Position numbers and translations under genes: made by a program
Assembly: GCA_030295235.1 (NCBI GenBank)
Contig: AP026154.1
Span: forward strand, 124,001-188,000
Direction of reading: 5' to 3'
DNA length: 64,000 nucleotides
Origin: Fistulifera solaris
Lineage: Eukaryota
Shown: in pieces, positions 4,039 to 61,865 of the stretch
How positions within the stretch are numbered: the stretch's first letter is position 1
Layout: every line of letters begins with the position of its first letter
Notes under the pieces: generated by a model
Told to the model about the DNA's origin: nothing
Seen by the model: only the letters and a program-made list of their open reading frames with translations
Database searches by the model: none

Positions 4039-4061
4039 TCAGGACTAAAGTCCAGTCGTAA
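4039..4061 (+). repeat. Degenerate copy of 23-bp hairpin element
   Basis: TCAGGACTAAAGTCCAGTCGTAA versus consensus TCATGACTGAAAnnCAGTCGTGG. Confidence 0.55.
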
Positions 4062-4306
4062 TCGTTATAGACTTAGTTTGACGCGTTCGACGAGCCTTGC
4101 GCACAACGATAACTTTTTATGCCGCCATGGCGTTCAAATTGAAAAAGTTCGACTACTTTACAGCAGAAAAGAGGCATCGTAACCTCAGTTTCTATGTATA
4201 AGAGACGTATTTCAAAAATTACGATAGCAAAGCAGTCGAATCCAAACTAACTTCTAGCTTACTACTCCGCGTAAACTTTCATGTGCTTATTATGATACAA
4301 AAAGAT

Positions 4307-5240
4307 TTACCTAATACAAATTTCAGAGCTTTTTACGGGAAAGGTACACCAGAGAGAATCACGTGTTTCCGCAAACTGTTCGTATTCCAGAATGGAAGCC
4401 AGCATCGATGGTTGGCTTTCTTGGATTTTATCGAAGATTTGATAGAGCTGTTGGCGTTGATTCGTGAGATCATCAGTACTATCAACAGGCATCTCAGTTA
4501 ATAAGGAATCTGTTGTTTGCCTCGCACAGTTATGAGATGCAATAATCCTCAACTTGATAATGGCAAGAGCCATGATGAATTGCGGCGTTGTCGCTAGCTC
4601 TTCCAAATCAGATGATTCCTCCGAGGGGTCCTTGTATCGACAATTTGGGTCGATGGAGTAAGTCCAGTGGCTATGCCAGAACACCGAATTAGACTGCAAG
4701 TGTAACCAGTATCGAATGTAAGCGAATGCTTCATCGTCTCGATTAGGGTGACGAAGAATAAAAGGAACTCGTGCCCGAGTCGGGAGATGCTCCGAGGCAT
4801 TGATCTTCATTACTCCCATGCATTCGGAAAGACACTTTTCCCAGACTTCTTTTATCTCTCTTTCGTAACCCACGCCCCAGTACATGGCTGCCAGGTCGGC
4901 GCGAGCCCTCAGGTACCATCTCAAGTTCTCTGCCCCGTCCCACGCATCTCCCTTCCATGATCGACAGAAAAGTTTGAATGAATCAATCTGCTCGGGGTCA
5001 AAAAGGGCCGAAGCGGGGCGGAAGCCTGTTCCGTGTGCTCTTTCGAACCTGCGATTTGATAGCATTGAAAGCGGTGCTCATTGAAGTGCTTTTTCTGGCA
5101 CTGCTTTCCGCAATTTCAAGCCATGAAACAGCGTGAACATCGAGTGCGGTGACGTTTGTTTGATCCTGACACGCAAACCATTACGGCTCTTCTTTTAAAT
5201 TGGGATCTTTCTCGTCGTAGTAGTACGACATTTCATTGAT
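4307..5240 (-). pseudogene. MYND-family paralogue (copy 2), degenerate zinc finger
   Basis: ORF 4307-5065 carries the family helical domain (ARADLAAMYW...KEVWEK...RVPFIL..NRDDEAFAYIRYW). Upstream 5084-5230 reads YYDEKDPNLKEEP*WFAC..RCSRCFMA*NCGKQCQKKH, with in-frame stops and a frame break. Confidence 0.8.
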
Positions 5241-5391
5241 CCAGTTTGTACTGTCCAAGGAATTATGTTTTCTTTTTGCGGAAAGATCTCGTCGTAATGG
5301 CGACATTTGCATTCAGATATGCTGACTTTTTTATACAGAAGTCCTGTTTCCAACCGACTATGGGACGCCTGTCAACGACTATACATTTGCC

Positions 5392-6544
5392 TTAGTTCCG
5401 TTGCCGGAGTATATCATCTGCACCGGGAACACGATAAAGAAGTCGAAGACCGTTTGCAAGCGTGATGTTTATGGGGAAAGGATACTGCTCAAGGAAATCC
5501 TCGTCTAGATCCAGAGCCTTACGCCTTTCTGAAATGAACTCGCATTCAAGTAGGTCATCGATTATGGAGGGATGATCGACTTCCATTCTGTCAAAAAAGT
5601 CGTTCAAGCTGTTGACGTTGAATAGAGACGCCGCTCCCCGCAAGCATTTCTCGCACAACCGGTCCCACTTGCTGAATTTTCTTGCATGCCGTTTCCGTGA
5701 AGGTATAACGAAGAACTGCCGCAACTGCCTCATGAGATGCAATAATACGAAGCTTTATGATAATGAGCACCATAAGATAAGGTGCCAGTAATGTTAGCTC
5801 CTCCAGCTTGGTGCACTCTTCGAAAATATCGTTGAAACGGCAATTCAATTCAAAGGGAATGGGCCGATCACCCCCTTCCGAGCGTCCATGCCATGACTTG
5901 CGTTTGTTATAAACTGGATCCGTGTAGTCTTCAACTTTCAACCAGTATCGGATGAAAGCATAAGCTTCGTCATCTCGATTCAGGTATAGAAGAATAAATG
6001 GAAGTCGGATGCGTGTCGTGACATCGAATGCGGCGTCGAATTTCATGAGCTCGACGCAATGAAAATGCGCTCTCAGACAAACTTCTTTTACCTCGCTTTC
6101 GTACGCAGCATCCCAGTACATGGAAGCCAGATCAGAACGAGCTCGCAAGCAGTTTTGAAAACCTTCGTCCCCGTTAAAACCTCCATCCTCTCTTCCCACA
6201 TAATTCTCCGCATGATCACTCTCTCCCGAATCAATGAATTGTCGAAACGGAATGGCTACCAGCTCTGTAAGTTCTCTCCCTTCGGTTATCTGATTGCAGA
6301 GTTCCCGGTGATGTCGGATGTCCTTTTTCTGACATTGCCTTCCGCAATACCAGGCCACCTCGCACCGTGAACATCGCTTGAGCGCGGCGACGTTTGTATC
6401 ATCATGACACGCAAAGCAGTACGGCTCTTTTACAATGCGATCTTTTCCTTCGTAGTACGGCCTCTTGAACCAGTTCTTCTCGCCGGGTAACGGAACTTGG
6501 CTAGTTATAAGTCGTGCAATTTCCCAGTCGATATCTGTGTCCAT
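5392..6544 (-). CDS. MYND zinc-finger protein (copy 3)
   Basis: CFAC..CSRCEVAWYCGRQCQKKDIRHHRELC, then the shared helical domain, ending NGLRLLYRVPGADDILRQRN. One extra base in a homopolymer near 5595. Confidence 0.85.
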
Positions 6545-6793
6545 TATTTTTGTGGAGGAATGACGATCTTTCGGCAAGTCAATCTGTATCTTGTAGCAGC
6601 GAAATTGGTAAGCGACTAATAGTTTTTGTCAATGAGGGTGCGAAAGAGAACTTAGAAAGTTTGAAATGCAAATGAAAGAAAGAATGATTCAATTGTAATT
6701 GTATCAGATGAAAGTGAAGGAACGGGATGCGATGGCATAGTACAAAGGAAAGCGAGATCGCACGGAATGCGGATCGCGGATCGCAAGACGAGC

Positions 6794-7200
6794 TCATGAC
6801 TAAAAAAATGCAGTCGTGGTAAAGTTGCTAGTACACTCGGGTTGTATAGTAATTATGAAGAAGATCATCCACACTACCCCGAAGTTATTTTTTCGCATGG
6901 AATAAAGGCGCGCATTGCAAATGCTGTCTAGGATATTTTTTTGCAAAATCAAATAAATTTTAAAAAAAGTAGACTAGCTAGAGGGGAAGATGTCAGGCTC
7001 GTTTTTACTCATGACTGAAACTTAGTCGTGGAATTGTTTAGACAAGAGACTATACAATACGGAGTATAGGTTGAGCCGACAACAAAAAATTGAAACACGA
7101 CAATTTGCGCCATTTTCGGTCGTAAAAATGAATCAAAGCGCGCATTGTACATGCTTTAGACGAATTTAATGGCAATGTATTGTTTTTTTACAAATAATGC
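6794..7200 (+). mobile_element. Head-to-tail dimer of ~215-bp hairpin-headed dispersed element (putative non-autonomous element)
   Basis: Hairpins at 6794-6819 and 7009-7031 (215 bp apart). Internal boxes AATAAAGGCGCGCATTGCAAATGC (6901) and AATCAAAGCGCGCATTGTACATGC (7131). Right boundary approximate. Confidence 0.7.
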
Positions 7201-7436
7201 TACGAAGCAAGTAGAGCAAACTATGCAACGTCATTAGTTGGTGAAAGCCCACCAATCGCGAATCGATATGATCCACCTCTCGACTCACTTATCCCGAGCC
7301 AAACGTGTGCTCAGCGCAGACAGTTCCTCGTTATCTGGTAGAATGTTTCCCTTGACATGTGTCAATCAATTGTTTTTGTCTTGGAAGCAATCAGTACGAA
7401 CGATAAGGTTGCACTGAACCTGATTTGACAGCCACG

Positions 7437-8546
7437 TCAGCCTCGCAGCCCCAGAATATCAAGAGCTCCAGGGACACGGAAGAAACAGCGAAGACTGTTC
7501 TCAAGAATAAGATATCTCGGAAAAGGAAGCGGGTCAAACAAGATGTAGCTAATACCACGAGTGTTACGGTTTTCGGAAATGTGTTCGCATCTACGGAAAA
7601 AGTCAAACACGGACGAATCATCGATCTGACTATCGTCTACTTGGATTTTGTCAAGAAGTCGACGGAGCTGTTGACGTTGTGTAGTAAGATCGCAGCCAGC
7701 AAGCATATGATGCAAAATTGGCCGTACTTCCTGAATTTTCTGCGCTGATGTCTTCTGAAACACAAAATCAAGTGTCTGAGAAATTGCTTCGTGAGAAGCA
7801 ATAATGCGAAGCTTAATGATAACCATTGCCACAAGAAACGGCATTGTGTACTTTTGCTCGTTCAATGTCGAACACTCTTCAAAGATATCAAGGAAGCGGC
7901 AGTTCGGCTCAAGTGGAAAGACCCAATCTCCCTCACGCGACCTTTCATGACGTGAAAACAGCTCGGTATCATCTTGCTCCTCGAAATTGATCCAATAACG
8001 AATAAACGAATAAGCATCATCATCGCGATTGAGGTACAAGAGAATTAGAGGAACTCGAAAGCGAACGTCGCACTGGTGTGCTATATTCAAACGCAAAATC
8101 TCCGAGTAACAAAACAATGCTTTCTCCCACACCTCTTTGATTTCACTTTCATACGCTGCGAGCCAGTAAGAGTTCGCCAGGTTAAAAAGCGATTCTAAAT
8201 AGGCACGCGTGCTTTCTCCTTCATCAAAAAAACCAACTAGCGTCTCAAAAGGATTGATTGTGCCTCCGGATGGATTCGGAGCGTTGCGCAGCGCGACGGC
8301 CCCTATCCGAACCAACTCTTTCTTTTCAACGATATGTTTACAGAAATAACGATGAAAGCCGAAGTGACCGTCTTGGCATTCGGCGCTGCAATACCAAGCA
8401 ATCTGACAGCTTGAACAACATTTGGGTGCCGGGATGATGATCTTATGATTAAAAAAGCGGCACGAAAAACAGCACGGTCTCTCTTTCAGATTGGAATCCT
8501 TGCCCTCGTACCAGTATAAGGGACAATTGAGCACTATTGAGTTCAT
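7437..8546 (-). CDS. MYND zinc-finger protein (copy 4, intact ORF)
   Basis: 369 aa. CFSC..CSSCQIAWYCSAECQDGHFGFHRYFC; RFRVPLILLYLNRDDDAYSFIRYW; NSLRCFFRVPGALDIL. Confidence 0.9.
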   Translation of the reverse strand: MNSIVLNCPLYWYEGKDSNLKERPCCFSCRFFNHKIIIPAPKCCSSCQIAWYCSAECQDGHFGFHRYFCKHIVEKKELVRIGAVALRNAPNPSGGTINPFETLVGFFDEGESTRAYLESLFNLANSYWLAAYESEIKEVWEKALFCYSEILRLNIAHQCDVRFRVPLILLYLNRDDDAYSFIRYWINFEEQDDTELFSRHERSREGDWVFPLEPNCRFLDIFEECSTLNEQKYTMPFLVAMVIIKLRIIASHEAISQTLDFVFQKTSAQKIQEVRPILHHMLAGCDLTTQRQQLRRLLDKIQVDDSQIDDSSVFDFFRRCEHISENRNTRGISYILFDPLPFPRYLILENSLRCFFRVPGALDILGLRG

Positions 8547-9030
8547 CGATGCAATTTAAGGGACCTTGTTTCTTGTACCTTGTATTTTGCTTCGCTTTGC
8601 ATTTCACTGAAACAAAAAAAACTACTCCGTAATAGGTTATGACGTAGTGTGACTTTTAGTAGACGACTCCTCTTCAAATAATGTCGTACTGCGCTTGTGA
8701 AAGTTGGCCCTTTCCCTTTAGCCTTAATCAATCAACGCAAAAATACGTACATTTACGTCGGTGTGGCACTTCAATTTTTTTTAATGGTACTGTACCTGGT
8801 AAAAGGTGAAAGTAAAGAAGTGAACTTCCGGAGCGCAAGTGAAGTTGCAAGTTGCAGTGAAAAAAGCCACTTGCCTATGATCTTGTGACTAAGGAAAGTA
8901 CAAAGTCCTAACCTTACTGTACCTGGTACTCCTTATCCTTAATCGTAATCGTGACTGCTGACGCGCTATGAAGTATGAAGCTGAAAAGTAGTAAATTAGG
9001 AGTAAGGATAAGAATTTGATCTCTACCGTG

Positions 9031-9150
9031 CCACGACTGAAATTCAGTCTTGCGTTACATTTGCGGATTATACGAAACACTATGCGTCTAACCAAATAAA
9101 GTTGCGCCGCCAAATCAAGGCGCACAATACAAATGCTGCCAAAGATAGTG
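9031..9150 (+). mobile_element. Hairpin-headed dispersed element
   Basis: CCACGACTGAAATTCAGTCTTGC at 9031-9053 and box AATCAAGGCGCACAATACAAATGC at 9113-9136. Confidence 0.65.
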
Positions 9151-9397
9151 GTATGTTAGTTCAAGCTTCCAAAGTGGTGAACAACTACTCATTTGTTACT
9201 TATTAATTGGAATTGACAATGTCCTTAGCGCCAGCATAGCACTGGGTATAGTTTAAGCTACCTTTTAAAAGCTAAATCAAACATTCATCGACACTGTCCC
9301 GAGCACTTGTCCAATATCAAAATAAAAATTGGAGCGACCATCCGCAAAAATGGCATATTTCGGAGATAGTTCGATGAGTCGCTAAGACCGAAAAATG

Positions 9398-10466
9398 TCA
9401 GCCACGCTGCCGGAGAATGTCGATAGCACCGGGAACGCGAAGAAAAGAGCGAAGACTATTCAAAAGAATAAAGTCTTTAAACGAACCGTTGTGATAGTTC
9501 AAAGCATCGACCAGTTCCACCGGTCGGCGCGTTTCAGAGATGTGTATGGATTCGAGAATAGTACTCAACAAAGAAGGGTCTCCATGATGAATCAGGTCGA
9601 GAATTGTATCAAGCTGTTGACGTTGGCTATTGATATCAAATCCAAATAAAAATTCTTGCACAATCGGCCTTACTTCCTCAACATTCTTGCATGCAGTTTC
9701 CTGAAATGTAAAGTCAAGTGTTTCAGAGATCGCTTTGCCTGTCGCAACGATTCGCATTTTGATTATAGCGAGAGCCACCAGATGCGGCAACGTGTAGTGT
9801 GTCTCCTCAAGCTTGGAAGAAGACTCTTCAGCAATGTCGTTGGAGCGGCAATCAGGCTCGACGGGGTAAAGCCAGTCTCCTTGACAATAGCTTGCATGTC
9901 GTGCAAGAATTGTATCGTCGTCCTCAGCGCCGAAGTTAAGCCAATATCGCATAAAGCAATAGGCGTCGTCATCGCGATTGAGGTACAATAGAATGAACGG
10001 AACTCGAAAGCGCGTCTCGCAATGGTGCCCAACGTCCAGCCGTAAAAGTTCCAAGTAATGCGAAAGGGACTTTTCCCATACTTCTCTTACCTCCCACTCG
10101 TAAGCAGAGTTCCAACACGAGTTTGCCAGACTGAAAAGAGCGTCTAGGTAATCTTTCGCTACGTCGATCGCACCCAATTCACCAACATGCGTCTCAAAAA
10201 GGTTGATTATAGTATCGTCCATGGGGATGTGTTGCAGGGGGTAGGCCATCAATTCAACAATATCTGTTTCGTCGCCGATCCGTTTACAAAGACTGCGATG
10301 CTCTTGAAAGTGTCTCTTTTGGCATTGCGCACTACAATACCAGGCCGCATGGCAGCGTGAACAACGTTTTTAAGTCCGAAATGACTGTTCGATCGTCGTA
10401 ATACTGGCAAGCAAAACAATACGGCTCCTCTTTCAAGTGAATATCATTACCCTCGTACGAAGACAT
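9398..10466 (-). CDS. MYND zinc-finger protein (copy 5)
   Basis: ATG at 10466: MSSYEGNDIHLKEEPYCFACQ..LK/RCSRCHAAWYCSAQCQKRHFQEHRSLC (extra base in homopolymer near 10370), continuing into ORF 9398-10252, which ends NSLRSFLRVPGAIDILRQRG. Confidence 0.85.
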
Positions 10467-11366: not shown

Positions 11367-11460
11367 TCCTGATCAAAGAATTCAGTCGTGATGTACTAGC
11401 AAACCTCTCCCCTCAACATAGACAACATCAATGTAAAGGAGGTAATGCAAAGATTGGACG
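11367..11460 (+). repeat. Degenerate hairpin-headed element
   Basis: TCCTGATCAAAGAATTCAGTCGTGA, then AATGCAAAGATT (11444-11455), which is shared exactly with the copy at 61.8 kb. Confidence 0.45.
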
Positions 11461-12212: not shown

Positions 12213-12520
12213 GATTTCTTTCAACTCGAAGCTTGTTGAGAAAAGTTAGTTTCACCGCAAAGATTATCAATGATTTCAGTCGGATCACAATGATGTGTTT
12301 TATTCCAACAAAGCAGTTTCTGGCGCATCAATCGATTGTGAGAGGATCAACTCTACGCAGCCCCCAAGGAAGTGTATCGTCTATACCGAAAAGAATTATT
12401 CCGGGATCGAGTGCGCGCTTTCTTAGTGGCGACTTCTTTGCTGCTCAATTCTTCGAAACCAAAAGGATTGCTGAGAACGATCGCGATGATACATCATGGT
12501 CGCAGCATCGCAGACAATGC

Positions 12521-12861
12521 TGGTCCAGAGTTTCTGGACCTGTCATACAGAATTTACGTCTGACGACGCAGAATAATGGTCCAGATTTTCTGGAACAGTC
12601 ATACAGAATTTCCGTCTGATTACGCAGAATGATGGTCCAGATTGTCTGGACACGTCATACAGAATTTCCGTCAGATGACGGAAAAAAAGTGGTCTAGATT
12701 TTCTGGACCGAATCTACAGAATTTCCGTCCGACGAGGGCTGAATGCTGGTCCAGATTTTCTGGAGCAACACTACAGATTACAGAATTTCCGTCTGACGAA
12801 GCAGAATAAATCGTCCAGATTTTCTGGAACAAACATACAGAATCTCCGTCCGACAGGGCTG
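12521..12861 (+). repeat. Minisatellite, 6 units of ~56 bp, built from palindromes
   Basis: Units start at 12521, 12577, 12633, 12690, 12747 and 12811. Consensus TGGTCCAGATTTTCTGGAnnnnCATACAGAATTTCCGTCTGACGAnGCAGAATnn. Confidence 0.95.
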
Positions 12862-13290
12862 TCCATCAATCAGTAGACTACTTTTTCGGCACTTCAGCGT
12901 CGCACCCTTTTTTGCGTGGTCGATCTGCCGCTGGGTGCGAACGAAGAAGATCTTGAAGCTCAATTCAAGCAATAAATTAAGCCCATTCTACTGTGCTGAT
13001 GACAATGATTGGCTCATGACTCATGACGGAAGGCGCAGACACAGTTGCGCGATACTTGGGCGAACAGAGATGTTTTGCTATCTGCTGTCAACGAGAGGAC
13101 TTGGAGTGCACTGTGGCTCTGGGGGCAGCTCTCTTCGTGGTCATCTTCACGTTTTTCGGAAGCAAGGGACGACAAGAATGATCCGGGTTTAAAAATTCGG
13201 CTGCATAAGAAAAAAGTTTCGATCGTTTCCTTTCTTTACAAACCCGTGTCTTCCTCCTTTCGTTATTTCTTGACGACTTGTCACCAAAGA

Positions 13291-17870: not shown

Positions 17871-18689
17871 ATGAAATTGTTTGCTGTTCTCTCCCTTGCT
17901 GTGGTTACATCTGCCTTGGAGCAACCCAATGGTATTCTTCAAGAATACCAGCGTGAGCTCCAAGCTTTGAATGACTTTGAGAGCCAAGTGGCTGGACGAG
18001 GTCGCTTCCTCACCGACGCGTCGGCTGGCAAGGCCAACATGACGGATTCTTCTTCGGCCGTCGGAGCCTGCCAAGCACGAAAAAATATGTGCGAAGCGGC
18101 CACTCAAGGTATGGAGTTTCCAGCACAAAAATGGATCGATACTCTCGAAAGCATGGGCAGCAGTCCCAACAACACACTCGTCGATGACTTAATTCAATTG
18201 ATTGATTGGTCACAACAAGCCGACTTCAATCCGGTAGTGTCGACGGTCCATAGCAGTGCCAGCGCCCAGAATGTATTGACGGTCCTTCGGGATACTGCCC
18301 AAGAAATCAAGAATGTCGACCAAGCGGATCCAACGGGAGCGACCGCGGTCATGGTCGATGCACTGACCCGCGTTGAAACGGTTCTTGTCAGTGTGGGCGC
18401 TCCCGTTCCCGAGCAATCGATTGATCTCGTCATTTTCTTGCTCGAGTTCGTGGCGGGTCTTTTGGGTACCCTCAGTGGATCGCCCCTCGAAATTGTCATA
18501 TACATCGTTCAGCAAGTCTTCGTCTTTGTCACAACGTTCTTGGCCGGTTTGTTCACGATTGCGGTGTTCCCTTCCGCAGACCCGGAATGTCAAAGTGAAC
18601 TCATGTTCTGCAACTACATGAAGATGATGCTCGACGTTGTACCTGGCTTGGTCGGAAGCATCTTTATTGCGGAGACGACTACTCCGTAA
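17871..18689 (+). CDS. Secreted or membrane protein, local paralogue family member 1
   Basis: Signal peptide MKLFAVLSLAVVTSA, RELQ pro-peptide-like motif, CxxxxxxC, hydrophobic C-terminal half, FP...C....M.CNY..M...VP. Confidence 0.8.
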   Translation: MKLFAVLSLAVVTSALEQPNGILQEYQRELQALNDFESQVAGRGRFLTDASAGKANMTDSSSAVGACQARKNMCEAATQGMEFPAQKWIDTLESMGSSPNNTLVDDLIQLIDWSQQADFNPVVSTVHSSASAQNVLTVLRDTAQEIKNVDQADPTGATAVMVDALTRVETVLVSVGAPVPEQSIDLVIFLLEFVAGLLGTLSGSPLEIVIYIVQQVFVFVTTFLAGLFTIAVFPSADPECQSELMFCNYMKMMLDVVPGLVGSIFIAETTTP

Positions 18690-19369
18690 ACAAGAATTTT
18701 CCACGTCGCTGCATAAATCAAATAAGTGTGAAATCTAAAAAGCTGTTTTTTCTTCGAGACCTGCCTACATCTATGTATTCTAAATAGAGTTAGTTCGATA
18801 AATGGTAGGGTTTGCTCGACAAATCTTTTCGAGACATCCAAGACATGCATCTAAATGTAATGGGGCAACAGTCCGGCTTCACTGGATAACAAAATATCAC
18901 TTAACTTCGCAACAACAATAATTTATGTCGAAACATGAAGGAGTCGCGAAACTTACGTCTCCGTGACGTGGCTAGATCTCCAAACTCCAAAACGTCTTGT
19001 CAGGGGATGTTTGTCTTCGGAGCATGTAAGGCTGGAAGACGAAGATCTGCCTTAAATCGACTAGCATTACAAAATTTTGTCATTAAATAGTCCATTAGAT
19101 GATTTTAGTGAAGCGTTTATTGAATTCACACTTCAAGGCCGGGTCACGTTCTCATTATTTCAGAATCAACAGACCATTTCGACGCTGAACGTTTCATACC
19201 GTTTTGTGATCATAAATTCTCTACCTCAACCAATTCGATCCGTACAACTTCCAACTTACTACTACGCTTCTTTCGGTAAGTACATTAGCCGATACTCACT
19301 GCTGCTAGTCATTTCAACTACAATCGCATTCACATTCATTTCCTGTACAATGACAACAGCCTCACTACC

Positions 19370-20134
19370 ATGAAATTCTGGACCATTTTTCTTGCGACCT
19401 CCGTTACGTTCGAAACGATCTTCGCTGCCGACGATACCGCACCGTTGACGCTTTTGGAAGAACCGGGTGAACGCGATTTGCTCCGCCTTGGTGTGAACCG
19501 TCGCTGTGGTCGTCGTCTCGAATCCTGTGTCGCCAACTCAGGAAATTCCGGATTGCCCATTCAGAACTGGCTGGGTGATCTTCGCCCACTCGGTGGTGAT
19601 GATGACAATGTAGACGAACTGCTTTCGATTCTGAATGCGGTTCAGGCCGCCAACGCGGGGCCCTTCGTGAGTGGTTTATCGCAGCTTGGTCTCCGTGATC
19701 GTGTTCGAGCTCTGCGCTTTTTCCGATCGACGATTTCGAATTTGAACGATCTCACGGTTTCGGGTGACAACTTTGATATTGCCCAGAGTCTGGATGACAT
19801 TGCGGGAATTCTCGTTGGGCTGTTCTCCTTTCTAAACGGCATGATCGATACGGCGCAATATCTGTTCCTTTCGCTCGCTCTACGCCTTACGCTGGTGACT
19901 TTGCAGTTGACCGATGCCGCCCAGGACCTGGCCATCGCTTCGTTTGTGGTGATTCCGGCAATTTTGACTCAATTCCTTGTGAGTACGTTGCGAGATGCTA
20001 CGGCGATTCTGTTGTTTCCCTTTGCCGATACGGGGTGTTTGGTGGCCTCGATGGATTGTAACTATGGTGTTTTGATGAACGGAGTCGTTCCGATTATTCT
20101 TGAAGGTATTGTGACCGTTGAAGGAGAAGAATAG
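19370..20134 (+). CDS. Secreted or membrane protein, local paralogue family member 2
   Basis: Signal peptide, RRCGRRLESCVANS, QNWL, FPFADTGCLVASMDCNYGVLMNGVVP, matching member 1. Confidence 0.8.
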   Translation: MKFWTIFLATSVTFETIFAADDTAPLTLLEEPGERDLLRLGVNRRCGRRLESCVANSGNSGLPIQNWLGDLRPLGGDDDNVDELLSILNAVQAANAGPFVSGLSQLGLRDRVRALRFFRSTISNLNDLTVSGDNFDIAQSLDDIAGILVGLFSFLNGMIDTAQYLFLSLALRLTLVTLQLTDAAQDLAIASFVVIPAILTQFLVSTLRDATAILLFPFADTGCLVASMDCNYGVLMNGVVPIILEGIVTVEGEE

Positions 20135-20469
20135 AATGATGCGCACTAGAATGAAACCGAATAGTAGTGTCGTTTTTCCTTGCACATTGTAAGGGTTTTT
20201 GTAAATACTCCGGAATAGACCGCTTTGACGTATGTGCGAAACAAATGAACTAAAGTAGCTCATTCCTCTACGTCCTTTGCGCGTGGGGTGAACAGAACGA
20301 TGTCTCAAAGAGTAATAACAGCATAACAGCCTTGAACTACAAGAATATTTGTGAATTGATTGTCATTTATTTTTGAAAAATCATTTCCTCTCGAAACGTT
20401 AACAGGTAGTGCGATGTCACGCGTGTATTCATTTGCGCAGCACGACTGCGACGCGGCAGTGCATTTGTC

Positions 20470-20492
20470 TCATGACTGAAAATTAGTCGTGA
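20470..20492 (+). repeat. 23-bp hairpin of dispersed element
   Basis: TCATGACTGAAAATTAGTCGTGA. Confidence 0.75.
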
Positions 20493-20853
20493 AAAGCAAT
20501 AGTACATTATTGGCCTAGACAAAGGCTTTGCAGTAAAGGATAGACCAACTTGGCCTTTCGAAAAGAGTAACATGCACGTAATGTGATTGAAAAATGCTTA
20601 TTAGTACCCCAATTTCTTCCATTTTTGTTTCAACTTTTCTAGTTTTTCCTCAAATGTAAACCAGATCTTTATAGTGTCAACAAAATTGACTATTGATACT
20701 TTATTTTTATTTTTCTGAAGATAAACCCAAATTTTATTTTATTCCCTAATTCCTTTTATCTACTCACTCCGGAGTATTCCATTAAAGAGACGCTGGTATT
20801 ACATTTACATGCCTTTGAAAGAGCAACCGTACTGTGTTACGGAGTAAGAGTTT

Positions 20854-20928
20854 ATAGATTTTCTGGGCACCCAACATCACATCTACAGATTTTCTGTAAG
20901 GCGTCGTCCAGTTTCCAGTTTTTCTGGA
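20854..20928. repeat. Cluster of three CAGA-N3-TCTG palindromes
   Basis: ATAGATTTTCTGGG (20854), TACAGATTTTCTGTA (20884), TCCAGTTTTTCTGGA (20914). Confidence 0.7.
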
Positions 20929-21283
20929 TATCACTACTGGTACCTACGTACCGGAACGACAATTCGCTCATTTTTGATGCGCCTTTTGACCTATTTTTTA
21001 GACCAAAAGAGGGTCACTTTTTCGTTCTTCATCGAAAGGGAACAGGGAACATGAAAATAAATAAAGGGAAGTATGTGCCGTTTCGTCGAATTCTCATAAT
21101 AATCGACTATTTTCACTCAGCATTACAGATAAAAGTGGCTCTTAATCAAGGTAGGTTCGAGTCGAGGTGCCGTACCTGGTAACGACTGCTTAGTGACGTT
21201 GTGCCAAATTGGAGCCTGGTTATACTTCAGCTAAAACTGCGTTCACTTTCGCTTTTCGATTCAATGAAAATTAGTGTCAAAGA

Positions 21284-21775
21284 ATGAAGGTGTTGATCTT
21301 TTTCTACGCTGCTGTATCTTTCATTCTGGCGACTCCTTTCGCTGCGGATTATGCAGAAGACCAGGATCGACCCGAACTCCTCCGTCGCAATTCTAACCGA
21401 CGCTCTGAACGTCGGCTTCGCTCTTGCAAGAGGCGCCTTCAATCTTGTGAAGCTAATTCAATGAATCAACATTTGAAGTCTCAGAACTCGAGTAAGATGG
21501 ATGAGTCGCGCTACTGTATTCCCAAACCTTCTGATATCAATCAGGCGACGTACAATTTCGAAAGTACGCAAACGAAGAACTGGTTAGCAGGAGGAAAGCC
21601 CGCATCTGTCGTCGACGGATCAAAAGTAACGAAAAACATCAATACATTTCTGAAACGCGTGAATCCAATTCTTCGCAACTGCATTGTGATGATGACGGAA
21701 TTGTTTTTGCTGACTTTGCTCACAGACGGTTTGTACAAATATATCTCTTCTACGTTAGGTAGGAAATTACTTTAG
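21284..21775 (+). CDS. Secreted protein, paralogue family member 3 (truncated or intron-containing)
   Basis: Signal peptide, ELLRRNSNRR..RSCKRRLQSCEANS and TKNWL similar to member 2. Possible introns (GTAAG near 21492). Conserved C-terminus not found. Confidence 0.55.
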   Translation: MKVLIFFYAAVSFILATPFAADYAEDQDRPELLRRNSNRRSERRLRSCKRRLQSCEANSMNQHLKSQNSSKMDESRYCIPKPSDINQATYNFESTQTKNWLAGGKPASVVDGSKVTKNINTFLKRVNPILRNCIVMMTELFLLTLLTDGLYKYISSTLGRKLL

Positions 21776-22162
21776 TCATCTAGATGGAAATGGGTAAGGG
21801 TAAACGAAACAGTCACATGGTGCTTCGTCTTCCTGTTTTAGCGTAGCCTCGCTTAATAAAGTTACCTAAGTCTTGTCCCATGAACGAGACCATAGAGACT
21901 CATTGCTCATGAGATGCTCCGAAGACTGGATGAAAGACAACAATAGAAACTCGAGCACAAGAAGGCTAGGCTCGAATACGTGAATACTAGCGGGTTAAAC
22001 GTTGCAATAGGATTTCTACGTAAGCGTAAGCACGAAAGCATTCAACGACTGTTTTGGAAGTAAAAATACCCGAAATTTCCCAGTTGAACAGTGCGATGCC
22101 GGTCATTAAAATATAGAATAATATCAGAGGTCATCCATTTCACATCCTAAAGAATCATTTGG

Positions 22163-22588
22163 CTACTCGCTCTTTTGCTTTTCCTCCACGGTCTCTACAT
22201 CCATCGACGCGGGCGGTGCCTGTTTGAGCTTGTTGGCATTCGCTTCTCCTTCCTGAAGTCCTTTTTGAAATTCTTTGGGGACTTCTTTGAGTTCACCAGC
22301 GATTTTACCGGCATCCTTGCCCAATTCGGCCAACTTTTGCGGTCCCAAAACAAAGGCGGCGGCGACCAAAATGATGGCTATTTCAGGGGCACCCAAGCCA
22401 AAAAGACCCATCGTTTGTATGTTCGCCACGGACTTGCGTTGATGCTGAAGTGCAGCGGGCGTGTAGTAATTGCTCGATGGAATCGTTGGCTGCGTCGTCG
22501 ATCGGAATGATTGCGGTGTCACCGGCGCAAACGCCGAAACAGTAGCCATCATCATGAATGCCGTGAAATAAGGTAAAATTGACTTCAT
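22163..22588 (-). CDS. tatA: Plastid twin-arginine translocase TatA/B-family subunit
   Basis: Bipartite presequence (..ATVSA-FAP..), then GLFGLGAPEIAIILVAAAFVLGPQKLAELGKDAGKIAGELK. Confidence 0.9.
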   Translation of the reverse strand: MKSILPYFTAFMMMATVSAFAPVTPQSFRSTTQPTIPSSNYYTPAALQHQRKSVANIQTMGLFGLGAPEIAIILVAAAFVLGPQKLAELGKDAGKIAGELKEVPKEFQKGLQEGEANANKLKQAPPASMDVETVEEKQKSE

Positions 22589-22979
22589 TTTTGCTGCGAT
22601 TGTGATAAAGTGTTGACGAAGCTTTTAAATTGGGGCGGAGACGGAGGTAAAAGTAAAGATAGTCGATGTCAAATGAGAGCTGAGATCTTGATGTCCTTCA
22701 AGTCGAAAAAGTCGATTGATTGCCTGTGATTGACTTTTCGATCCTCCCTCCAACTCAACGGTATGACGTACGACGAGCTGTCGCAGCAGGAATGGAGCTT
22801 GCTTGCGTGGACGTGACTTTCCAGACCCGGATGATCAAGCCCATAACCTGCTCAGACCCGTTTGATCATGACTCCTCCCTACGCCAACAAAAACTTTTTG
22901 CAGAATAAACGCGACAAAAGACGAAAGCACAACACGTTATTATTCATTCTCGACTTACTTATCGAATCTAGTTTACAGC

Positions 22980-25152
22980 ATGGGAAACAGAGTGAAAGGA
23001 CGCGTGAAGAAGAAGTCTATCAAGGCGGCCCTCAGTTCGGCCGCCGGTAGCAAGCGCAAGCTAACGCGTATGGGAAAGAGGCAGAAAAAAGAACACGGAG
23101 GTCTCGAGGCGACATTTATCGGACGATCGAAATGTATCAAAATGCTACAAATCACAATCAAAGATTTTCGTCGTCTTTGTATTTTAAAGGGAATTTACCC
23201 GAGAGAGCCTATCGGGCGCACGCCGGGGAAAAAGAAAGGTCAAACATTCTATCACATTAAAGATATCAAAGCGATTGCCCATGAGCCGATTCTCCAAAAA
23301 TTCCGCGAGTTCCGTGCGTTTATGAAGAAGGTAAGTAAGGCTTAAGAATGATATTTATTCGCATTAGAACAACAAAAATTTAATCGCATTTGCTCTTCAC
23401 TGCTCAGGTTCGCCGTGCCGCTGGACGCAATGAAATGGACGAAGCCCAACGCAAGAATTCCTTGTTGCCTCAGTACAGCCTTCACCATTTGGTGAAGGAG
23501 CGTTATCCTCGCTTTGTGGATGCCTTGTCGGATCTTGACGACGCATTGACTTTGACTTACTTGTTTGCTTCATTGCCGGCACATTCGAACGTCAACTCCT
23601 CCGTCATCAACAAGGCCAAGAACTTGGCTGCCGCCTGGGGTTCGTATTGTGCCACAACCTCGTGCATTACAAAGTCGTTCATTTCGGTCAAGGGGGTCTA
23701 TTTGGAAGCGACGATTCAGGGAACCGCCATCCGTTGGATTGTCCCCCATGCGTTTACACAGCACCTGCCGAATGATGTGGATTTTCGTGTGATGCGAACC
23801 TTTCTCGAATTTTATGAGACCATGTTGAACTTTGTATTGTTCAAGCTGTACAATGATATTGGAGTCCGTTATCCATTCCCTGCGAAGGAACTTGGCGGTG
23901 AAGTGGTGGGTAACACGAGTGCCGTGTTGGCGAAAACACTACGTGCATTGATGAAAGGTCTCGACAGCAGCAAGGGTGTTGTGAGTCAAGTGGTTACTGA
24001 ATCACTACAGGAGCAACAACAAAATACGGATGAAGGTCGCAAAGCAAAGAGAAGTAAACGCGATAAGGATCTTATCAAATCGGTGGATGTTGCACTCAGC
24101 AAACTTAATGATGAAGAGAGTGAAGAGGAGGACGAAAACAGCGATGACAACGATGCAGAAGATGATGATGTTGATGTTTCTGCTCCACTGCGCGCTGCTC
24201 TCGACCAGGTTGCCGAAGACGAGGCACGTGGTGCGGTGCTTTGTATCGCTGCCGAAGTCGATGATGAAACGGTTAAAAGGAGACGTCTTTTGAAGGACTC
24301 GTCTTTTTCTTTTCACGAGAAATTCCCCGTGGTTACCTTGAGCTGGTGTGCCTCTCTTACGGTGCCAAGGTAGGATGGGAAGCTGAGGACAGTCCGATCT
24401 CGATGAAAGATTTTTCCATCACACATCACGTGGTGGATCGACCCAAGCTCCCGAACAATTATGATTCTTTGCCAAAGTCTCGCGAATTCATTCAACCTCA
24501 GTGGATTTTGGATTCGGCGAACTTCATGTTTTTGTTACCCATCGCGAAATATGGTGTCGGCGTGTCTCTTCCACCACACTTGTCTCCTTGGGTAGACAAT
24601 GAAGAAGAAGGCTACAAACCGGCTTACGCGGAAGAGATTGAAAAGCTAAAGAATGGAGAGGTTTTAGACGACCGTGAGATGGAGGAAGTTTCGTCTGATG
24701 TGCCTGAGATGGAAGATGACGAAGACGAACAGGGCGAGGAAGAGGATGAGCAAAGAGAAGAAGAAGCTTTTGAAGAAGCAGACAGCGACGAAGAGGAGGA
24801 GGAACCTGTCACAAAGCCAATCAGAAAGACCAAGAGCAAGAAAGATCGTCAAAAGGAAGAAGAGGAAGAGGCTCATGCTCTTGCTAAGACCATGATGAGC
24901 CGCAAGGCCGCTCATTTGTACGGTCGTATGCAATATGGTATTGCCGGCAAGCAGGCCAAGATTGATGCACTGCACAAACGCCGCGCGGAGATCGAAAGTT
25001 CTAAGACGAAAGAAAACGGAAAAACTGTCCTGAAACAAAAAGTGGAACGCTTGAAGAAAGAACGGTCGACACTTGAAACGCAGTACGATGCAAGCGGAGG
25101 GACTATGAAGAAGAGCAAAAAAAGAAAAGTCTACGTAGAGCTCCACAAGTAA
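22980..25152 (+). CDS. PES1: Pescadillo homologue (ribosome biogenesis, BRCT)
   Basis: DFRRLCILKGIYPREP, HLVKERYPRFVDALSDLDDAL, ITHHVVDRP..IQPQWILDS..LPPHLSPW. Intron 23331-23407; 1-nt indel near 24290. Confidence 0.95.
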
Positions 25153-25399
25153 AATGGCAAGTAGGATAGCACTTGGCACTTTGGTGTGTACAAAAGGTAT
25201 CAAATCTAGATTGCAATTTATAGCAAGATTAGGTAACGCATGATTACATGATCAACAGAACGATTTATGGATATCGGTCATGCGTCGGAGTAGAACGGCC
25301 CTGCTACCTGCGGTCTCTGTAGTAGTTCCAATCGCGGCTCAAAGCCAAGGGGGAAGTAATACAAACGCACCACGAATGTCTTTCGCATGGTCCGTTCAC

Positions 25400-25789
25400 A
25401 AATAATCCAACAGCGTCATAAGCCACGTATGTCGTAAGTCTCCACAGTAGTTCTGGCAATGCATGCCTTGATTTTATCGAATAAGGAATCGATTGGGATT
25501 GAGCTCAAACATATTTACTACTCCTATTAAGTAAAGTGTATTACAATCGTACCGCGACTATATTTCAGTCATGAGTCAATTTTATTTCGAGCCATACTTT
25601 TACCCAACCTCCATTCGTTTTCCTATCTTGGTAAATGCTGTTATCCTAATGCAAATATCTTTTACAGCCTGCGCAATACACACCTTGATTCTTTCCAGCA
25701 AAAAAAAACCGCGGATCGTTTTCTTCAATATTCACTATAGACTCAAAGTGAAGGCGACCTTTTTCACCACGACTGCTTTTCAGTCATGA
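25400..25789 (-). mobile_element. Head-to-tail dimer of ~215-bp hairpin-headed dispersed element
   Basis: Reverse-strand hairpins at 25767-25789 and 25552-25574 (215 bp apart). Boxes at 25667-25690 and 25456-25473. Interior aligns patchily with 6820-7008. Left boundary approximate. Confidence 0.7.
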
Positions 25790-25904
25790 AGTGCAACGGG
25801 ATGAAATGTATGTACTTGTACGGTACGAGAGGGAAAAATTCACTTGCAAACCTAGTCTCTTTCGATGTAACCAAAAGTAAAACGTCAACTCATAAGTCAT
25901 ATAC

Positions 25905-26651
25905 ATGTCACCTTCTATTGAAAAGGAATTCTTCATCGAAGACACAGAGACAACCGTACGGTACGCTGATTTGAATTCGAATGTCGTAGCTGTCGTGACA
26001 CATCCGTGGACGTTTCTTGGAGGCAATATGCACAACAACGTTGTGGTGGCTGCCGTATTGTATTTCCAGAAACTAGGCATCAGTACAGTCCGCTTCGACT
26101 TTCATGGCAGTGGTATCGGTCGCGGTTACACGCAAGTCGAACAAGTTCGTTCAATAGTTCGAAAAATTGTGAAGCGCGACTTTGATGATAATGGTGATGA
26201 TGATGACAAACAAGAAGATACAGCAACCCATCCTGCGAAACGACCCACCAAAGTCATTCTCATTGGATATTCCTACGGTTCTTTGATTACAGGAAGCGCC
26301 AGTGCGAATATGGACGAATGTATTGCTTCAATTTCTATCGCACCGCCATTTGCGGTGCAGCATTGGTTGTTACTCTTCAATTCCTCCTATCATTTACGAC
26401 AATCGACGCTTGCGGAGCATTTGCCGCGTTTGTTTCTCATGGGCACAAAAGACAATTTTACTTCCGAAAAGGTCTTTCAAAACATGATTGAGACACATTA
26501 TCTGAGCGCTGTAGGTGCGATCGTGCCACACGCCGATCATTTCTTTCATCGTCGCGAAAAGGATGTCATGGATGTTATCGGACAGTGGTTGCTGGAGACA
26601 TTTGCGAGTCACTGTCAAGGAGATTTGCGACGATTGCGGGATTTTCCTTAG
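25905..26651 (+). CDS. Alpha/beta hydrolase
   Basis: THPW..LGGNMHNNVV, VRFDF.GSG, GYSYG nucleophile, GTKDNF, HADHFF catalytic triad. Confidence 0.9.
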   Translation: MSPSIEKEFFIEDTETTVRYADLNSNVVAVVTHPWTFLGGNMHNNVVVAAVLYFQKLGISTVRFDFHGSGIGRGYTQVEQVRSIVRKIVKRDFDDNGDDDDKQEDTATHPAKRPTKVILIGYSYGSLITGSASANMDECIASISIAPPFAVQHWLLLFNSSYHLRQSTLAEHLPRLFLMGTKDNFTSEKVFQNMIETHYLSAVGAIVPHADHFFHRREKDVMDVIGQWLLETFASHCQGDLRRLRDFP

Positions 26652-28208: not shown

Positions 28209-28438
28209 TTCAGTCCTAGTGATAGCAGAAGTTGATTGCTCTGCTTGCCGCTTATTCGAGATTGTGCATGTTGCTTTCTGTGAGTTTACTTTTCGCTTCA
28301 ATCAAATATATCGTCGAGGATTTCAGTCCTAGTGATAGCAGAAGTTGATTGCTCTGCTTGCCGCTTATTCGAGATTGTGCATGTTGCTTTCTGTGAGTTT
28401 ACTTTTCGCTTCAATCAAATATATCGTCGAGGATTTCA
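28209..28438 (+). repeat. Perfect 113-bp tandem duplication
   Basis: 28209-28321 is identical to 28322-28434, with TTCA microhomology at the junctions. Confidence 0.95.
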
Positions 28439-30628: not shown

Positions 30629-31058
30629 AAGCTAATTGTGAAACATAATCTTGCGGGGGCGCGATCCATGAAAGATTTGGCTTCTTGTATGTTGGATGTA
30701 CAGATACCGTATCAAGCGGTAGGGGCTTCTTAATCATTGAAGCGCTAATATTGTTAAAGGATTTTCGATCGAGTAATTGCAAAGAGACAGAATAATAGCT
30801 AGCATTAATGAGTGTATTAGTTTATCTGATCGCTTGCGGTCGCAACGTACGGTTGCACACATGACGAGGGCGTCCATTTGCATTGTTACAACTATGGAAC
30901 GAGAACGATAAACGAAACAAACCGTCCAAGCCTCTTTGCACTTTTGTGGTCGCTGTCTCTCCTGGGCTAAATTTAGAACCTGAAAATTCGCATGAATAAT
31001 TGTGCTCTACAGTGGACTCAACCGACTTTCATGTCACACGCCTCACTATTATTTGCGA

Positions 31059-32487: not shown

Positions 32488-32600
32488 TCATGACTGAAAT
32501 GCAGTCGTGGTATGATACCCTATCTACGGTAGAGCTACTAGTACCTGGTAAAACGGATAAGTAAACGTTGAAGACAACGATTACCAAGGCATTCTGCCGA
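32488..32600 (+). mobile_element. Hairpin-headed dispersed element
   Basis: TCATGACTGAAATGCAGTCGTGG (32488-32510). Downstream AGTAAACGTTGAAGACAACGAT resembles AGTGAATATTGAAGAAAACGAT of the 25.7-kb copy. Confidence 0.7.
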
Positions 32601-33348
32601 TGAGAGTAAATTTGAAATAGTACCTGGTACAGCCTTCGTTCAACAAGTTAGGACAACGAGCGGAAACAAGGTACGGACAGGACAACACGTTATGTAGATA
32701 TTGAATGCGGACAACAACGACCCTCAAGACGTTTCGCCGCAAAGAAGAGAATCATAGTTACGTGCATTGCAAAGACTGTTGATTGTTGATGATGAATGCA
32801 TTGTCATTGTCACAAAAGTATTTTTATAATCTTGCAAAAGAAACGAGTGTTAGAACGCAGTTTGGCTAGAAATAATCTTGACGCACATTCGGGTACCCCC
32901 ATAGGGATAAAATTCCTACGGCGGCTACACAAATTTGTGTAGACACTCGAAGCGTTGCATTTTTCGTTAGTTTTGCGTATTTCAATCAATTTGATGACGA
33001 TTATCGTTTATTTGCACGAAATATATATGTGGGAGAAAGTGACGATGGCATTGGTGCAAAATTGACCCGAAAAGTGGTGTGATCGAAATGTTGATTTTCC
33101 ACTCCTGAAAGCTTACACGTGGCGCACTAAGATGATTGTAGTAAGAAAAGTACCATGGTTGTACACGTTGCTCAACACATCTCGTCATCCTTTCGTTTTG
33201 CGCCCTTTTCTGGCGAAAAACGATGAACGATAAACTCCAAAGCACGCACCTTTTGTTTCATTTTATTTGCATCATCCTCGGTAAGAGAACATCTCTAAAA
33301 GATTGGTGACTCCTCTTTCGGCTGAATTTATTGTTGTCACTGGGAAGA

Positions 33349-40504: not shown

Positions 40505-40687
40505 CTAGAAATTCTGAAAGGGTGCATTTCTCACTTCGGAGTAGTACAGATCCTACGTATTCCGCGTGACTTCCAGAAATTCTGGAGGAGGTGTATTTCA
40601 TCCTGCAGGAATTCTGTGTGATTTACAGGAATTCTGGAAATGGCGCATTTCATTTACAGAAATTCTGTGTACCCCCAGAAATTCCTG
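40505..40687. repeat. Cluster of six CAG(A/G)-AAT-TCTG palindromes
   Basis: Copies at 40505, 40572, 40605, 40625, 40656 and 40675. Confidence 0.75.
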
Positions 40688-54809: not shown

Positions 54810-54820
54810 CGACAACGTTT

Positions 54821-56326: not shown

Positions 56327-56947
56327 TTTTTAATTATTGTCGCGAATTATCTCATTATAAAAAGTGTAGGAAGAGTAAAAAAGGGTAGCATTAGCAATTA
56401 GCAACCTGTTAGAATAGTAGTAGTTGGAATGAAATAAACGCAGGACGCAGGAACGAATAAAAGCGAAACGGCGACCGTGACTCAGAACGAAATGGAGTCT
56501 TGGTCTCCTAGTAGAACCAACACATTGGAGCTATAGGAAAGTAAGTTGCGACCGATCTATCCGATTTCGACGTAAACAATAGAAGAATGAATCGCAAAGA
56601 GAGCTACAATAAAGGAACCTCTCTAACTAAGACAATTCGTGTAGTTTCTCAAAGGGTTCCTGCTGTATTTATAGCAGCGGAACGTCGTCTCAAAGAGCCG
56701 TAAACCATTCGTGACTCGGGAATCGTGACAAAAGGTCGTCTACACTTTGGACTGTCTCTCGATGATTAGGTTACGCGGTGTGACAATAAACGTGGCGCCG
56801 GCGTTCAAGAAAATGCTGCGTCGATCGTCGTTCAATCTTTTCTTATGTGCACGCAACGCACTACCTGGTATGGTGCTCTCGACACACATGAAACGATGCG
56901 AATCAACACTTCAAAGTTCTAGTTTCCTCTCAAGGCGTTTTCAAGTG

Positions 56948-59308: not shown

Positions 59309-60007
59309 GATAGTTGCAAGCAATTTAACTTAAAAGCGAAAGCAAACGACTACTTTTGTCATTGACGCGATGAGGCAAATGAAATCATCGCATCTATTCT
59401 ATTCTATTCTTCTTCGTTCAACGATGATTTTTCTCAGCGAGACGGAAATAAGTGAGATATGCACGCGTGTGTAGCCCGTTTCATGTAAGTATAAGGTTCA
59501 AGATAGATCGCTAGAGATCGCAATCGGGACTTACAACATTGCAGTCCCGGAAATGCAATGACATCGTTATTTCTTTAAGCCATCTATCCTCCTCTCACAT
59601 TTTGTCTTAGACCAGGCAAAGGTGCAATATATGGAGCAAGGGTTTCTTTCAAAACATGGCCATTGTGGCTAGTGATGACGCAACAACGCACAATACATGC
59701 CCAGTTTTATTTGTACCAAGCAATGGTCTATGGTTTGACGACGTGTTGGGGTGACTTTTTGTTACGGACTCATAATTTTTATCAGAGCACCACCTTTGTA
59801 GCTTGTTGGTCATGGACTCAATTGGAGCTAACTTTCGCAGTCAAAATGACTTATCTAAGTAGCAGCGCCATGGTGGCGTCTATGAAAGTTTTCAATATCA
59901 GTAGATTTCATTCGTCGTCATGGTGTTTGGTACATGAAGAAATATCGCCTTGAACAATGACGCCGGCATTAGAGTGCTTCTCTGAAAAGTTGAAAAGATA
60001 TTACATC

Positions 60008-61558
60008 TTACGATTGAACTACTTCATTCTGCAAGTTCTTCCGCCTAGCAATCCACCATGTTCTGGAAGCGAATTGCACCGCACGTCCGCCTTGAAAAAG
60101 AGCCAAAATCCACCAAACTCCAGCTAAGGATGCCGGTCGTAACGGACTCGTGAGCCACAAAATGGTGACCAATGTAGTAACGAGATAACTCGTACTCAAG
60201 AATCGCAAATCACGCTGCGCCAAGAGCATGCCTTCGCACGTCAAGGCAATCGCGTGCATCGAAACACTAAAGGCTAGTATTGGTGCAGTCGCACGCAGTG
60301 CAGATGCCACTGCAGCAGTATTGGTGAAAATCGCGGATCCCTGTGACGGCAAAAGTCCCGCTAGAGTCGCAGCTACGAGTCCTGCCACAACACCTGTTTG
60401 AAATAGAAATCTCCGAGCACCTTTGGTTTTGTTGCGTTGCTGCAATATTCGCGGAAGAAAAACTTGGGACGTCATACCGACGGAATCGCCAACCGGTGTC
60501 CAGAAAAGAAATTACGCAACAACACTTGGTGGGCTGCCAATGCCGTAGCTCCCAATCGTCCCACGGACAAACTAACTCCATTGTACACCACAGACTTGCC
60601 CAGAATCGTAGCGAAGATGGGCAACGAATATTCTCAAAAACTCATTCAACAAGGTAGAGTTGAATGAAGAGAATCGCACATGAAGATCTCTTCGAACGCG
60701 TTGGATCAAAAACAAGGCCGCCGCTACATCGGCCGTGGCTGTGGCTACCGCGGCTCCGGCAATGCCCCATCCAGCGTACTTCACCAGGGTAACAGTCCCA
60801 ATCAAATTCAACCAAAATGCCAGAATCACACTCCACAGAGGCGATGCCGTATCATGCCGAGCCAGTAATGTCGCACGCGAAACCGATGCCCAAAGAACAA
60901 AAGGCTGGGCCAAGGCACGGATGAGCGAATAGCGCAATGCGGAGGGAATGACGGAAGCACTGGCTTGCCCGGCAATACTCCACAGTAGAGGTGTACCGGC
61001 CGTCCAGACCATGCTACACAGGAATACACCCAAGACTCCGGCCAAGACTAACGCCGTTTCTACGGTCTGTTGAACCGATTCGTCTTCCGTCGCGGAAGCA
61101 ACGAGATTCGTACAGGCCGTCGCAACGAACATGCACAAATAGGCACTGCTATCGATCAAGGTACAGGCCGGTGCGAGCGCCGCCAGTTGTGTAGCACCAC
61201 AACATTGTCCCACCACCGCTGTATCAATCAAGGACATGATCGGTGGGGCCATCCACAGGGCTAGTGTGGGGGTGACAAATTGGAAGACGGAACGGGCACT
61301 GAGATTATAGGATTGTGAGGTGGATGTGGCATTGTAAATTGTGTCTTCTTCGCTCAAAATCAAGCTCTTTTCGTTCACTCCTAAGGAAGCGTTGTGAGGG
61401 ACTGCATGGAGAGGAACAAAGATGCGAGAATAGGTAATGGGCGTGTTGCTTGTTCCACTAAATCGAACCATTCGCGAAGTAAACGCGTTCGATGTTCGCG
61501 TCGCGGCGAACAACACCGCTAGAGTCAAAGCTTTCATTATATTGTGTCGAAGTCTCAT
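60008..61558 (-). CDS. Plastid-targeted MATE transporter (EDS5/DTX46-like)
   Basis: Presequence ..ATRTSNA-FTS; PIMSLIDTAVVG, LAALAPA, YSLIRALAQP, GWGIAGAAVAT, EGMLLAQRDLRFL. Two homopolymer indels near 60640 and 60507. Confidence 0.88.
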
Positions 61559-61757
61559 GTTTCTTTCACTTGGATCATTCGATAAGCAACAAAAAAGAGG
61601 TGTTTTCATTGGGAAAGGCAGAAAATAGGCTAATTTCTTTGAAAGACGTTGGATGCAACGAAACGAATGCATCTCAAATTTCGAGATGGACGTCGGGGTG
61701 GAGGAAACGATGACGTTGCGACGCCTCCTCTCTAATCTTGAGATACTAACCAGACAG

Positions 61758-61865
61758 TCATGACTGAAATCCAGTCGTGGTCAATATTGAAGAACACTAT
61801 GGGCGGTTGTTAATGTTGAAAAGGATTCTCCGGATCAATCGAGAACTGCAATGCAAAGATTAACA
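61758..61865 (+). mobile_element. Hairpin-headed dispersed element
   Basis: TCATGACTGAAATCCAGTCGTGG (61758-61780), then AATATTGAAGAA (shared with the 25.7-kb copy), AACACTATG (shared with the 9.0-kb copy) and AATGCAAAGATT (shared with the 11.4-kb copy). Confidence 0.7.

Follow-up and report, generated by a model that had tools for sequence, protein, structure and literature searches.

A dispersed family of intergenic repeats headed by a conserved 23-bp palindrome in the diatom Fistulifera solaris

We analyzed 64,000 nucleotides of Fistulifera solaris DNA (GenBank assembly GCA_030295235.1, contig AP026154.1, positions 124,001 to 188,000, forward strand; the whole stretch is called the window below). 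Between its genes lie copies of a repeat, referred to here as the H family, whose units are headed by a 23-bp palindrome, H. The family is a real, abundant non-coding repeat found between genes as single or head-to-tail copies. An initial annotation, made from the DNA letters alone, had proposed ten copies of a dispersed ~215-bp element in this stretch. The copies were located by their heads and with a hidden Markov model (HMM) of the unit, which was trained on 38 head-to-head units (window unit 25576-25789 among them) and whose window hits were reported to E ≤ 1:

4039..4061, plus strand: doubtful degenerate head with only the inner arms left; no HMM hit at E ≤ 1
6794..7221, plus strand: two-unit head-to-tail array, heads at 6794 (8-nt loop) and 7009; HMM 6794-6947 (E = 1e-13) and 7009-7221 (E = 3e-8)
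9031..9175, plus strand: decayed single unit, atypical head at 9031-9053 and body piece at 9112-9175; weak HMM hits, E = 0.055 for the head (scored on the minus strand) and 0.012 for the body (plus strand)
11367..11391, plus strand: doubtful copy with only the right arm left; no HMM hit at E ≤ 1
13014..13045, plus strand: decayed left end read by eye, a doubled 7-mer and a degenerate head, ~145 bp from a 56-bp tandem array
20470..20517, plus strand: solo core (head and weak second block); HMM E = 0.016
25411..25789, minus strand: two-unit array, HMM E = 9e-38 (the training unit) and 2e-7; 25576-25789 is the best-preserved full unit
32488..32881, plus strand: exact head with a decayed body, then a headless unit at 32680-32881; HMM E = 1e-6, 0.027 and 1e-14
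56489..56598, plus strand: further decayed unit; HMM E = 7e-6
61758..61913, plus strand: single unit, HMM E = 4e-9, ~200 bp upstream of a MatE gene on the opposite strand

The head motif matched the window seven times at ≤2 mismatches, compared with 0.00 times in 100 shuffled sequences. Exact heads were found at 7009(+), 25767(-), 32488(+) and 61758(+), heads with one mismatch at 20470(+) and 25552(-), and one with two mismatches at 9031, where the match is on the minus strand. Head matches and HMM hits together supported eight of the ten proposed copies, leaving those at 4039 and 11367 doubtful. The copy at 6794 is genuine even though its loop measures 8 nt, and the 215-bp spacing given for both doublets was correct. 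The units at 32680-32881 and 56489-56598 and the decayed left end at 13014-13045 had not been listed before. The proposed intergenic placement was also supported: in another chromosome block a looser head pattern occurred 25 times in 90 kb of non-coding DNA vs. once in 110 kb of coding DNA. The 61758 copy lies inside a stop-free frame, yet ~200 bp upstream of the likely MatE start. Several H copies are located between four tandem paralogous minus-strand genes at 4307-10450, three of which encode a MYND finger.

A genome search found 546 exact 23-bp heads and none for the reversed control, as expected for the genome-wide, dispersed family that had been proposed. In 400 kb there were 57 HMM hits to 10 exact heads; scaled to 546 heads, this would give a rough family size of ~3,000 unit fragments. 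The ~218-bp unit joins a ~57-bp core, containing H and a second block, to a spacer of ~160 bp. Arrays follow the layout core-(spacer-core)n, solo cores occur commonly, and the genome has 92 copies of the doubled 7-mer left end (plus TG). The 97 arrays collected from 90 sources contained 1-11 units (48 single-unit, the longest 11), and 44 of them ended at unit positions 40-79, just past a core. Neighboring cores were in tandem in 63 cases, facing inward in 4 and outward in none. About a dozen arrays close with a short extension carrying a motif, T, that looks by eye like half a head in degenerate form. In a young subfamily, Y, the unit measures 236-248 bp and the loop 12 nt, and at least 175 genome matches at 80-93% identity were found with 40 of 101 candidates scored. 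Thirteen of 17 young Y arrays terminate right after a core; their 3′ end is fairly fixed and their 5′ end variable. H gave no match in viral contigs or plasmids. The 16 exact heads in a metagenome scan were taken as chance because none had body similarity. A printed description of the repeat was not found in the literature searched, which lay outside Repbase, Dfam and the supplements of an F. solaris preprint (bioRxiv 10.1101/2021.11.10.468027), and the family has apparently not been described in print.

Column conservation was estimated from 20 units at different loci. The two arms of H reached 0.96 and 0.93 and the loop (usually 5 nt, range ~4 to 12) 0.85, whereas the body outside the head and the second block was at 0.67-0.75; the units were chosen by their heads, which inflates this contrast. 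The second-best block covers unit positions 36-54 (0.82) and had been overlooked. The initial annotation had instead named a box farther downstream in five copies. Three of these match at ≤3 mismatches and the other two are visible but more diverged; the conservation of this box (0.69) is no better than that of the body. The picture of two islands in a drifting body is thus half right: the head does stand above the body, but the bodies are homologous over their whole length (median pairwise identity 52% vs. 33% for shuffled bodies).

We examined whether H is read as a single strand, as RNA or as duplex. In 121 head copies, oriented by the second block, related to one another and partly chosen by exact patterns, 27 stem transitions keep a G-T wobble and 19 make an A-C mismatch (p = 0.30). 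Counted in contiguous DNA only, the ratio was 7 to 1 (p = 0.07, n = 15). Compensatory double changes numbered 2 in 121 copies × 9 pairs. RNAalifold on 23 cores recovered the stem with none of the 9 pairs doubly changed and a covariation term of −0.04, and Rfam gave no match at E ≤ 1 in 7 loci. The strand-specific hairpin and the small RNA suggested earlier therefore found no backing, nor did stem covariation, and an RNA or single-strand hairpin reading is unsupported. The G5-C19 pair is invariant in 121/121 copies, though C19 sits in a CpG and a C-to-T change would still pair as G-T. Since this pair is invariant and neither covariation nor an Rfam match was detected, we favor base-specific reading of duplex DNA: H is probably recognized as double-stranded DNA by a protein through the GAC...GTC positions. 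A protein-bound cis-module, also among the earlier suggestions, is the option that best fits the invariant pair.

Contigs C1 and C2 are collinear homoeologs that differ at 20% of fourfold-degenerate sites (3577/17750). A head is present in both homoeologs in 10 head-bearing gaps and in only one in 6, and at several sites the head is deleted or broken in one homoeolog. The young arrays at C1:137.1-139.5k, 222.3-224.1k and 309.5-311.8k are absent from C2, so the spread went on after the subgenomes split. Such presence/absence differences between homologous chromosomes are what the initial annotation had proposed to look for. Two Y sites could be resolved against C2. In both, the old head is common to the two homoeologs, and 220-270 bp immediately behind the head/core have given way to the array, with no duplication. 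No target-site duplication (TSD) signal was detected at 19 core-ended arrays (longest shared flank word 4.26 vs. 4.43 in permuted pairs), and array ends are too eroded to fix a target. The homoeolog of window 19-27 kb was not found in an assembly search with 40 of 96 candidates scored. Run X1 has a second, diverged copy of window 18500-34500 at about half depth, which the assembly may lack. Run X2 shows loose ends on either side of 25744-25790, probably from a contig carrying a head of another locus. The X2 and X3 contigs do not span the copies in the window, which carries no information about expression, and X1 joints that skip part of the 32.5-kb copy were set aside because their sides are shorter than 30 letters.

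Three other repeats bear on the origin of the arrays:

L218:301-1122, L219 and L220 (C5:804341, C13:905804, C17:539841): Kolobok-like element with terminal inverted repeats (TIRs) and flanking TTAA
12516..12870, minus strand: 56-bp tandem array with a short palindrome, C, and the T motif, which also closes some H arrays elsewhere
62945..63160, plus strand: young repeat J, 98% identical over 217 bp to C2:165933-166149

The first is a separate young non-autonomous element of 830-870 bp with GA...TC ends; 3/4 fetched copies carry TIRs flanked by TTAA on each side. Of its 33 matches in the genome, 13 break off at one shared internal position. Its left ~360 bp, or part of it, precedes Y arrays, which lie downstream of matches with this common stop in L180, L181 and L033 and of shorter matches in L173 and at C1:309.5k. 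No right TIR or TTAA pair was found around any Y array examined. C is a 13-bp palindrome whose arrays, with periods of ~34-57 bp, occupy window 12516-12870, 40571-40684 and 63220-63530. C-type arrays flank H arrays in several loci, and related arrays longer than 1 kb differ between homoeologs (C1:137k, C1:240k, C2:215k). J is joined to an H core on C2 and abuts an H array in L058. A different dispersed repeat at window 32915-33079 (77% to L026:963-1124) adjoins H arrays at both loci.

The H family belongs to an already known kind of repeat. We tentatively favor, at a little under an even chance, a scattered, satellite-like family whose palindrome is read by a protein and which spread through repair and unequal exchange, in the manner of the 1.688 and Rsp-like satellites of Drosophila. 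Small head-to-tail clusters at many gene-rich loci are a feature of dispersed euchromatic satellites, and 63/67 neighboring H pairs are in tandem. The same pattern was described for Rsp-like/1.688 clusters (Sproul et al., 2020, PMC7403614; comparisons here and below refer to the accessible parts of the cited sources). There, too, small tandem clusters are interspersed with genes, one junction is fixed and the other variable, and mixed clusters move together; younger repeats settle at existing clusters of older ones, as may have happened at the two resolved H sites. The H family differs in that its old and young units are related, its palindromic core is far more conserved than the spacer and it is spread over all chromosomes, while microhomology and circles are documented on the Drosophila side only. 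Because copy number differs at shared sites, we infer that arrays expand and contract in place, through unequal exchange between cores. New arrays would be seeded mainly by break repair that copies another repeat locus or a circle, often landing where an old core is already present and replacing the local sequence. Such copying would leave no TSD and would carry along pieces of neighboring repeats. Replacement and chimerism are observed at a few sites; the repair pathway would be the route to both. The first dispersal to unrelated sites was possibly the work of a transposon now gone or undetected. The array architecture, the absence of a TSD signal, replacement behind old heads, the chimeras, the invariant G5-C19 pair and, as moderate support, the nearness of some Y arrays to an old head were counted in favor of this satellite-like reading.

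Several observations weigh against it. Only two empty sites were resolved at the base level, both against a 20%-diverged homoeolog. An old head lies within 600 bp of 7/18 Y arrays vs. 9% of non-coding positions (p = 0.0006), but this null is too low, as "non-coding" takes in unrecognized exons; per gap, 13/62 (21%) hold an old head, and with that null 7/18 is only borderline (p about 0.06 by our estimate). The other 11/18 Y arrays have no old head nearby. Size changes >300 bp were not enriched in gaps with an old head (4/13 vs. 14/49, p = 1), and H was rejected as a hot spot of large size changes. Three chimeras begin exactly at the TIR with different flanks, which resembles transposase work. 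C arrays were not significantly linked to H in contiguous DNA (4/16 vs. 5/46, p = 0.22).

We searched for a partner enzyme that could mobilize the family. None of the 29 longest of 93 open reading frames in the window matched a mobile-element enzyme in Pfam, in line with the earlier statement that no cognate enzyme is encoded there. Genome searches with PF14214 (Helitron), PF05970 (PIF1) and PF00589 (tyrosine recombinase) gave no match, but these searches are insensitive and are not evidence of absence. Of 24 Harbinger-type transposase matches, the first 20 have no H unit closer than 1.5 kb and two extended ones contain none; a Harbinger link was rejected on these loci. A single H-like palindrome inside a reading frame of the L188 family was taken as chance. 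That family is a Harbinger-type element of ~3.9 kb with a 36-bp TIR and four copies ~99% identical (L188, L189, L190, L196; C18:907k and others). At one end of L194 lies an array of palindromes with a 20-bp period, C-like but not H.

Among the alternatives, a non-autonomous rolling-circle element of the HINE/DINE-1 or Helitron2-like type, with central tandem repeats and H as a hairpin read by an HUH transposase, is unlikely, though the most probable of them. Like HINE/DINE-1 Helentrons (Thomas et al., 2014, PMC4067079) and Helitron2 (PMC5148889), the H family is non-coding, with internal tandem repeats, palindromes and no TSD signal. Head-to-tail arrays, the fairly fixed 3′ and variable 5′ ends of Y arrays, T runs after some right array ends and the 7 to 1 wobble excess in contiguous DNA would suit such an element. 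L020, L033 and L167 have an inverted T motif on the 5′ side, and about a dozen loci have T in direct orientation on the 3′ side, but no element was found with T at both ends. The 23 exact T copies have no close inverted pair, and T was for that reason rejected as a TIR. In contrast to the published elements, no H array was seen with a subterminal inverted repeat pair on one element or a defined 3′ stem-loop terminus, the palindrome is present in every unit and no RepHel partner was found in the insensitive searches above, whose lack of PF14214 and PF05970 matches counts weakly against this reading. No overall strand bias or covariation was detected, and Replitrons were not detected in diatoms (PMC10288648, as far as the available text goes). 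The Helitron1 type was rejected: the base before the head is mixed (T 9, C 8, A 3, G 1; n = 21), whereas Helitron1 starts with TC after an A, and the consensus has no CTRR end word, which in Helitron1 stands before a T. The H hairpin ends ~30 bp before the core end, vs. a Helitron1 hairpin ~11 bp from the 3′ end.

It is less likely still that non-autonomous DDE transposons of a Kolobok-like or foldback-like type carry the cores as internal or terminal repeats, with H as the binding site of a transposase or accessory protein. The young TIR element, whose TIRs start with GA and which is flanked by TTAA on each side in 3/4 copies, agrees with Kolobok as defined in PMC9587614, and several Y arrays are headed by its left part. 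The layout of arrays and solo cores resembles the (LTDR-INT)n-LTDR form and solo repeats of KolobokP multimers described there. However, the H core is 57 bp long with no TIRs or TSD, vs. LTDRs of 450-660 bp with both, and no transposase or nuclease gene accompanies H. The TIR pair (RR...YY) and TTAA TSD that mark the Kolobok class were found at no H or Y array examined, only at the separate 830-870 bp element, and arrays of the main family have no TIR segment. Four core pairs do face inward, but with 63 in tandem the cores were rejected as TIRs. The Harbinger-type loci, free of H units, also speak against DDE elements as the source.

A distinctly unlikely reading is that the host retains the copies, however they arose, for a cis-acting role as promoter element, replication origin or chromatin anchor. 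A head in both homoeologs in 10/16 head-bearing gaps would agree with this, as would a 23-bp head stretch that is identical between homoeologs amid indels ~200 bp upstream of a gene. In 17 hand-picked homoeologous pairs the arms differ at 58/306 positions (19%) and the adjoining flanks at 28-35%, but the arm value is not below the 20% of fourfold-degenerate sites (p = 0.67). Without 4 indel, replaced or misplaced pairs it drops to 27/234 (11.5%, counted by hand), a biased choice. Heads were not enriched in divergent gaps (3/20 vs. 12/33 in tandem gaps), and the heads lost or broken in one homoeolog argue against retention. The preprint cited above gives three centromere/autonomously replicating sequence (ARS) motifs and mentions unexplained highly repeated intergenic elements. 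J contains the core of motif 3 at 62966-62987(-) as an exact 22-nt match (0 in 100 shuffles); no match to the longer motif 1 was found within three mismatches. The published motif may thus be part of a mobile repeat. It shares a half-site with H, matching the H consensus loop and right arm at 10/11 bases, and its repeat adjoins H cores at the two loci named above, which would also agree with a host role, but H is none of the three printed motifs.

We consider it a long shot that H is the dimeric binding site of a host chromosome-maintenance protein, with the half-site seen in the centromere/ARS motif. The thousands of copies would then make up a self-renewing lattice of sequence-defined replication origins or break sites across the genome, in which old cores are kept for their function while new arrays are copied in behind them. 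If the centromere/ARS-motif factor binds H, the repeat would offer a testable sequence-defined origin/centromere element for diatom artificial chromosomes; if not, H is an ordinary lineage-level repeat, chiefly relevant to annotation. Diatom intergenic repeats are poorly catalogued, and the family and the two subgenomes provide a compact built-in comparison for small satellites that colonize gene-rich DNA without an enzyme of their own.

Least probable of all is that the copies serve a tyrosine recombinase of the Crypton type, as its target sites or its non-autonomous elements, or that they are arrays of a structured RNA or ribozyme of the retrozyme kind. The arm-spacer-arm form and a GAAGAC near the point where arrays end are suggestive, but arrays neither begin nor end on GAAGAC, no shared terminal word was found, Y arrays lack GAAGAC at their ends, the loop varies from ~4 to 12 nt, and the Rfam and covariation results disfavor a ribozyme.

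Two further repeats were noted in the window. Positions 28209-28434 and 28774-29054 contain an exact 113-bp tandem duplication and an 84-bp inverted repeat. A ~75-bp palindromic element resembling a miniature inverted-repeat transposable element lies at 63314-63392 and is also present in L009, L015, L030, L162 and L194.

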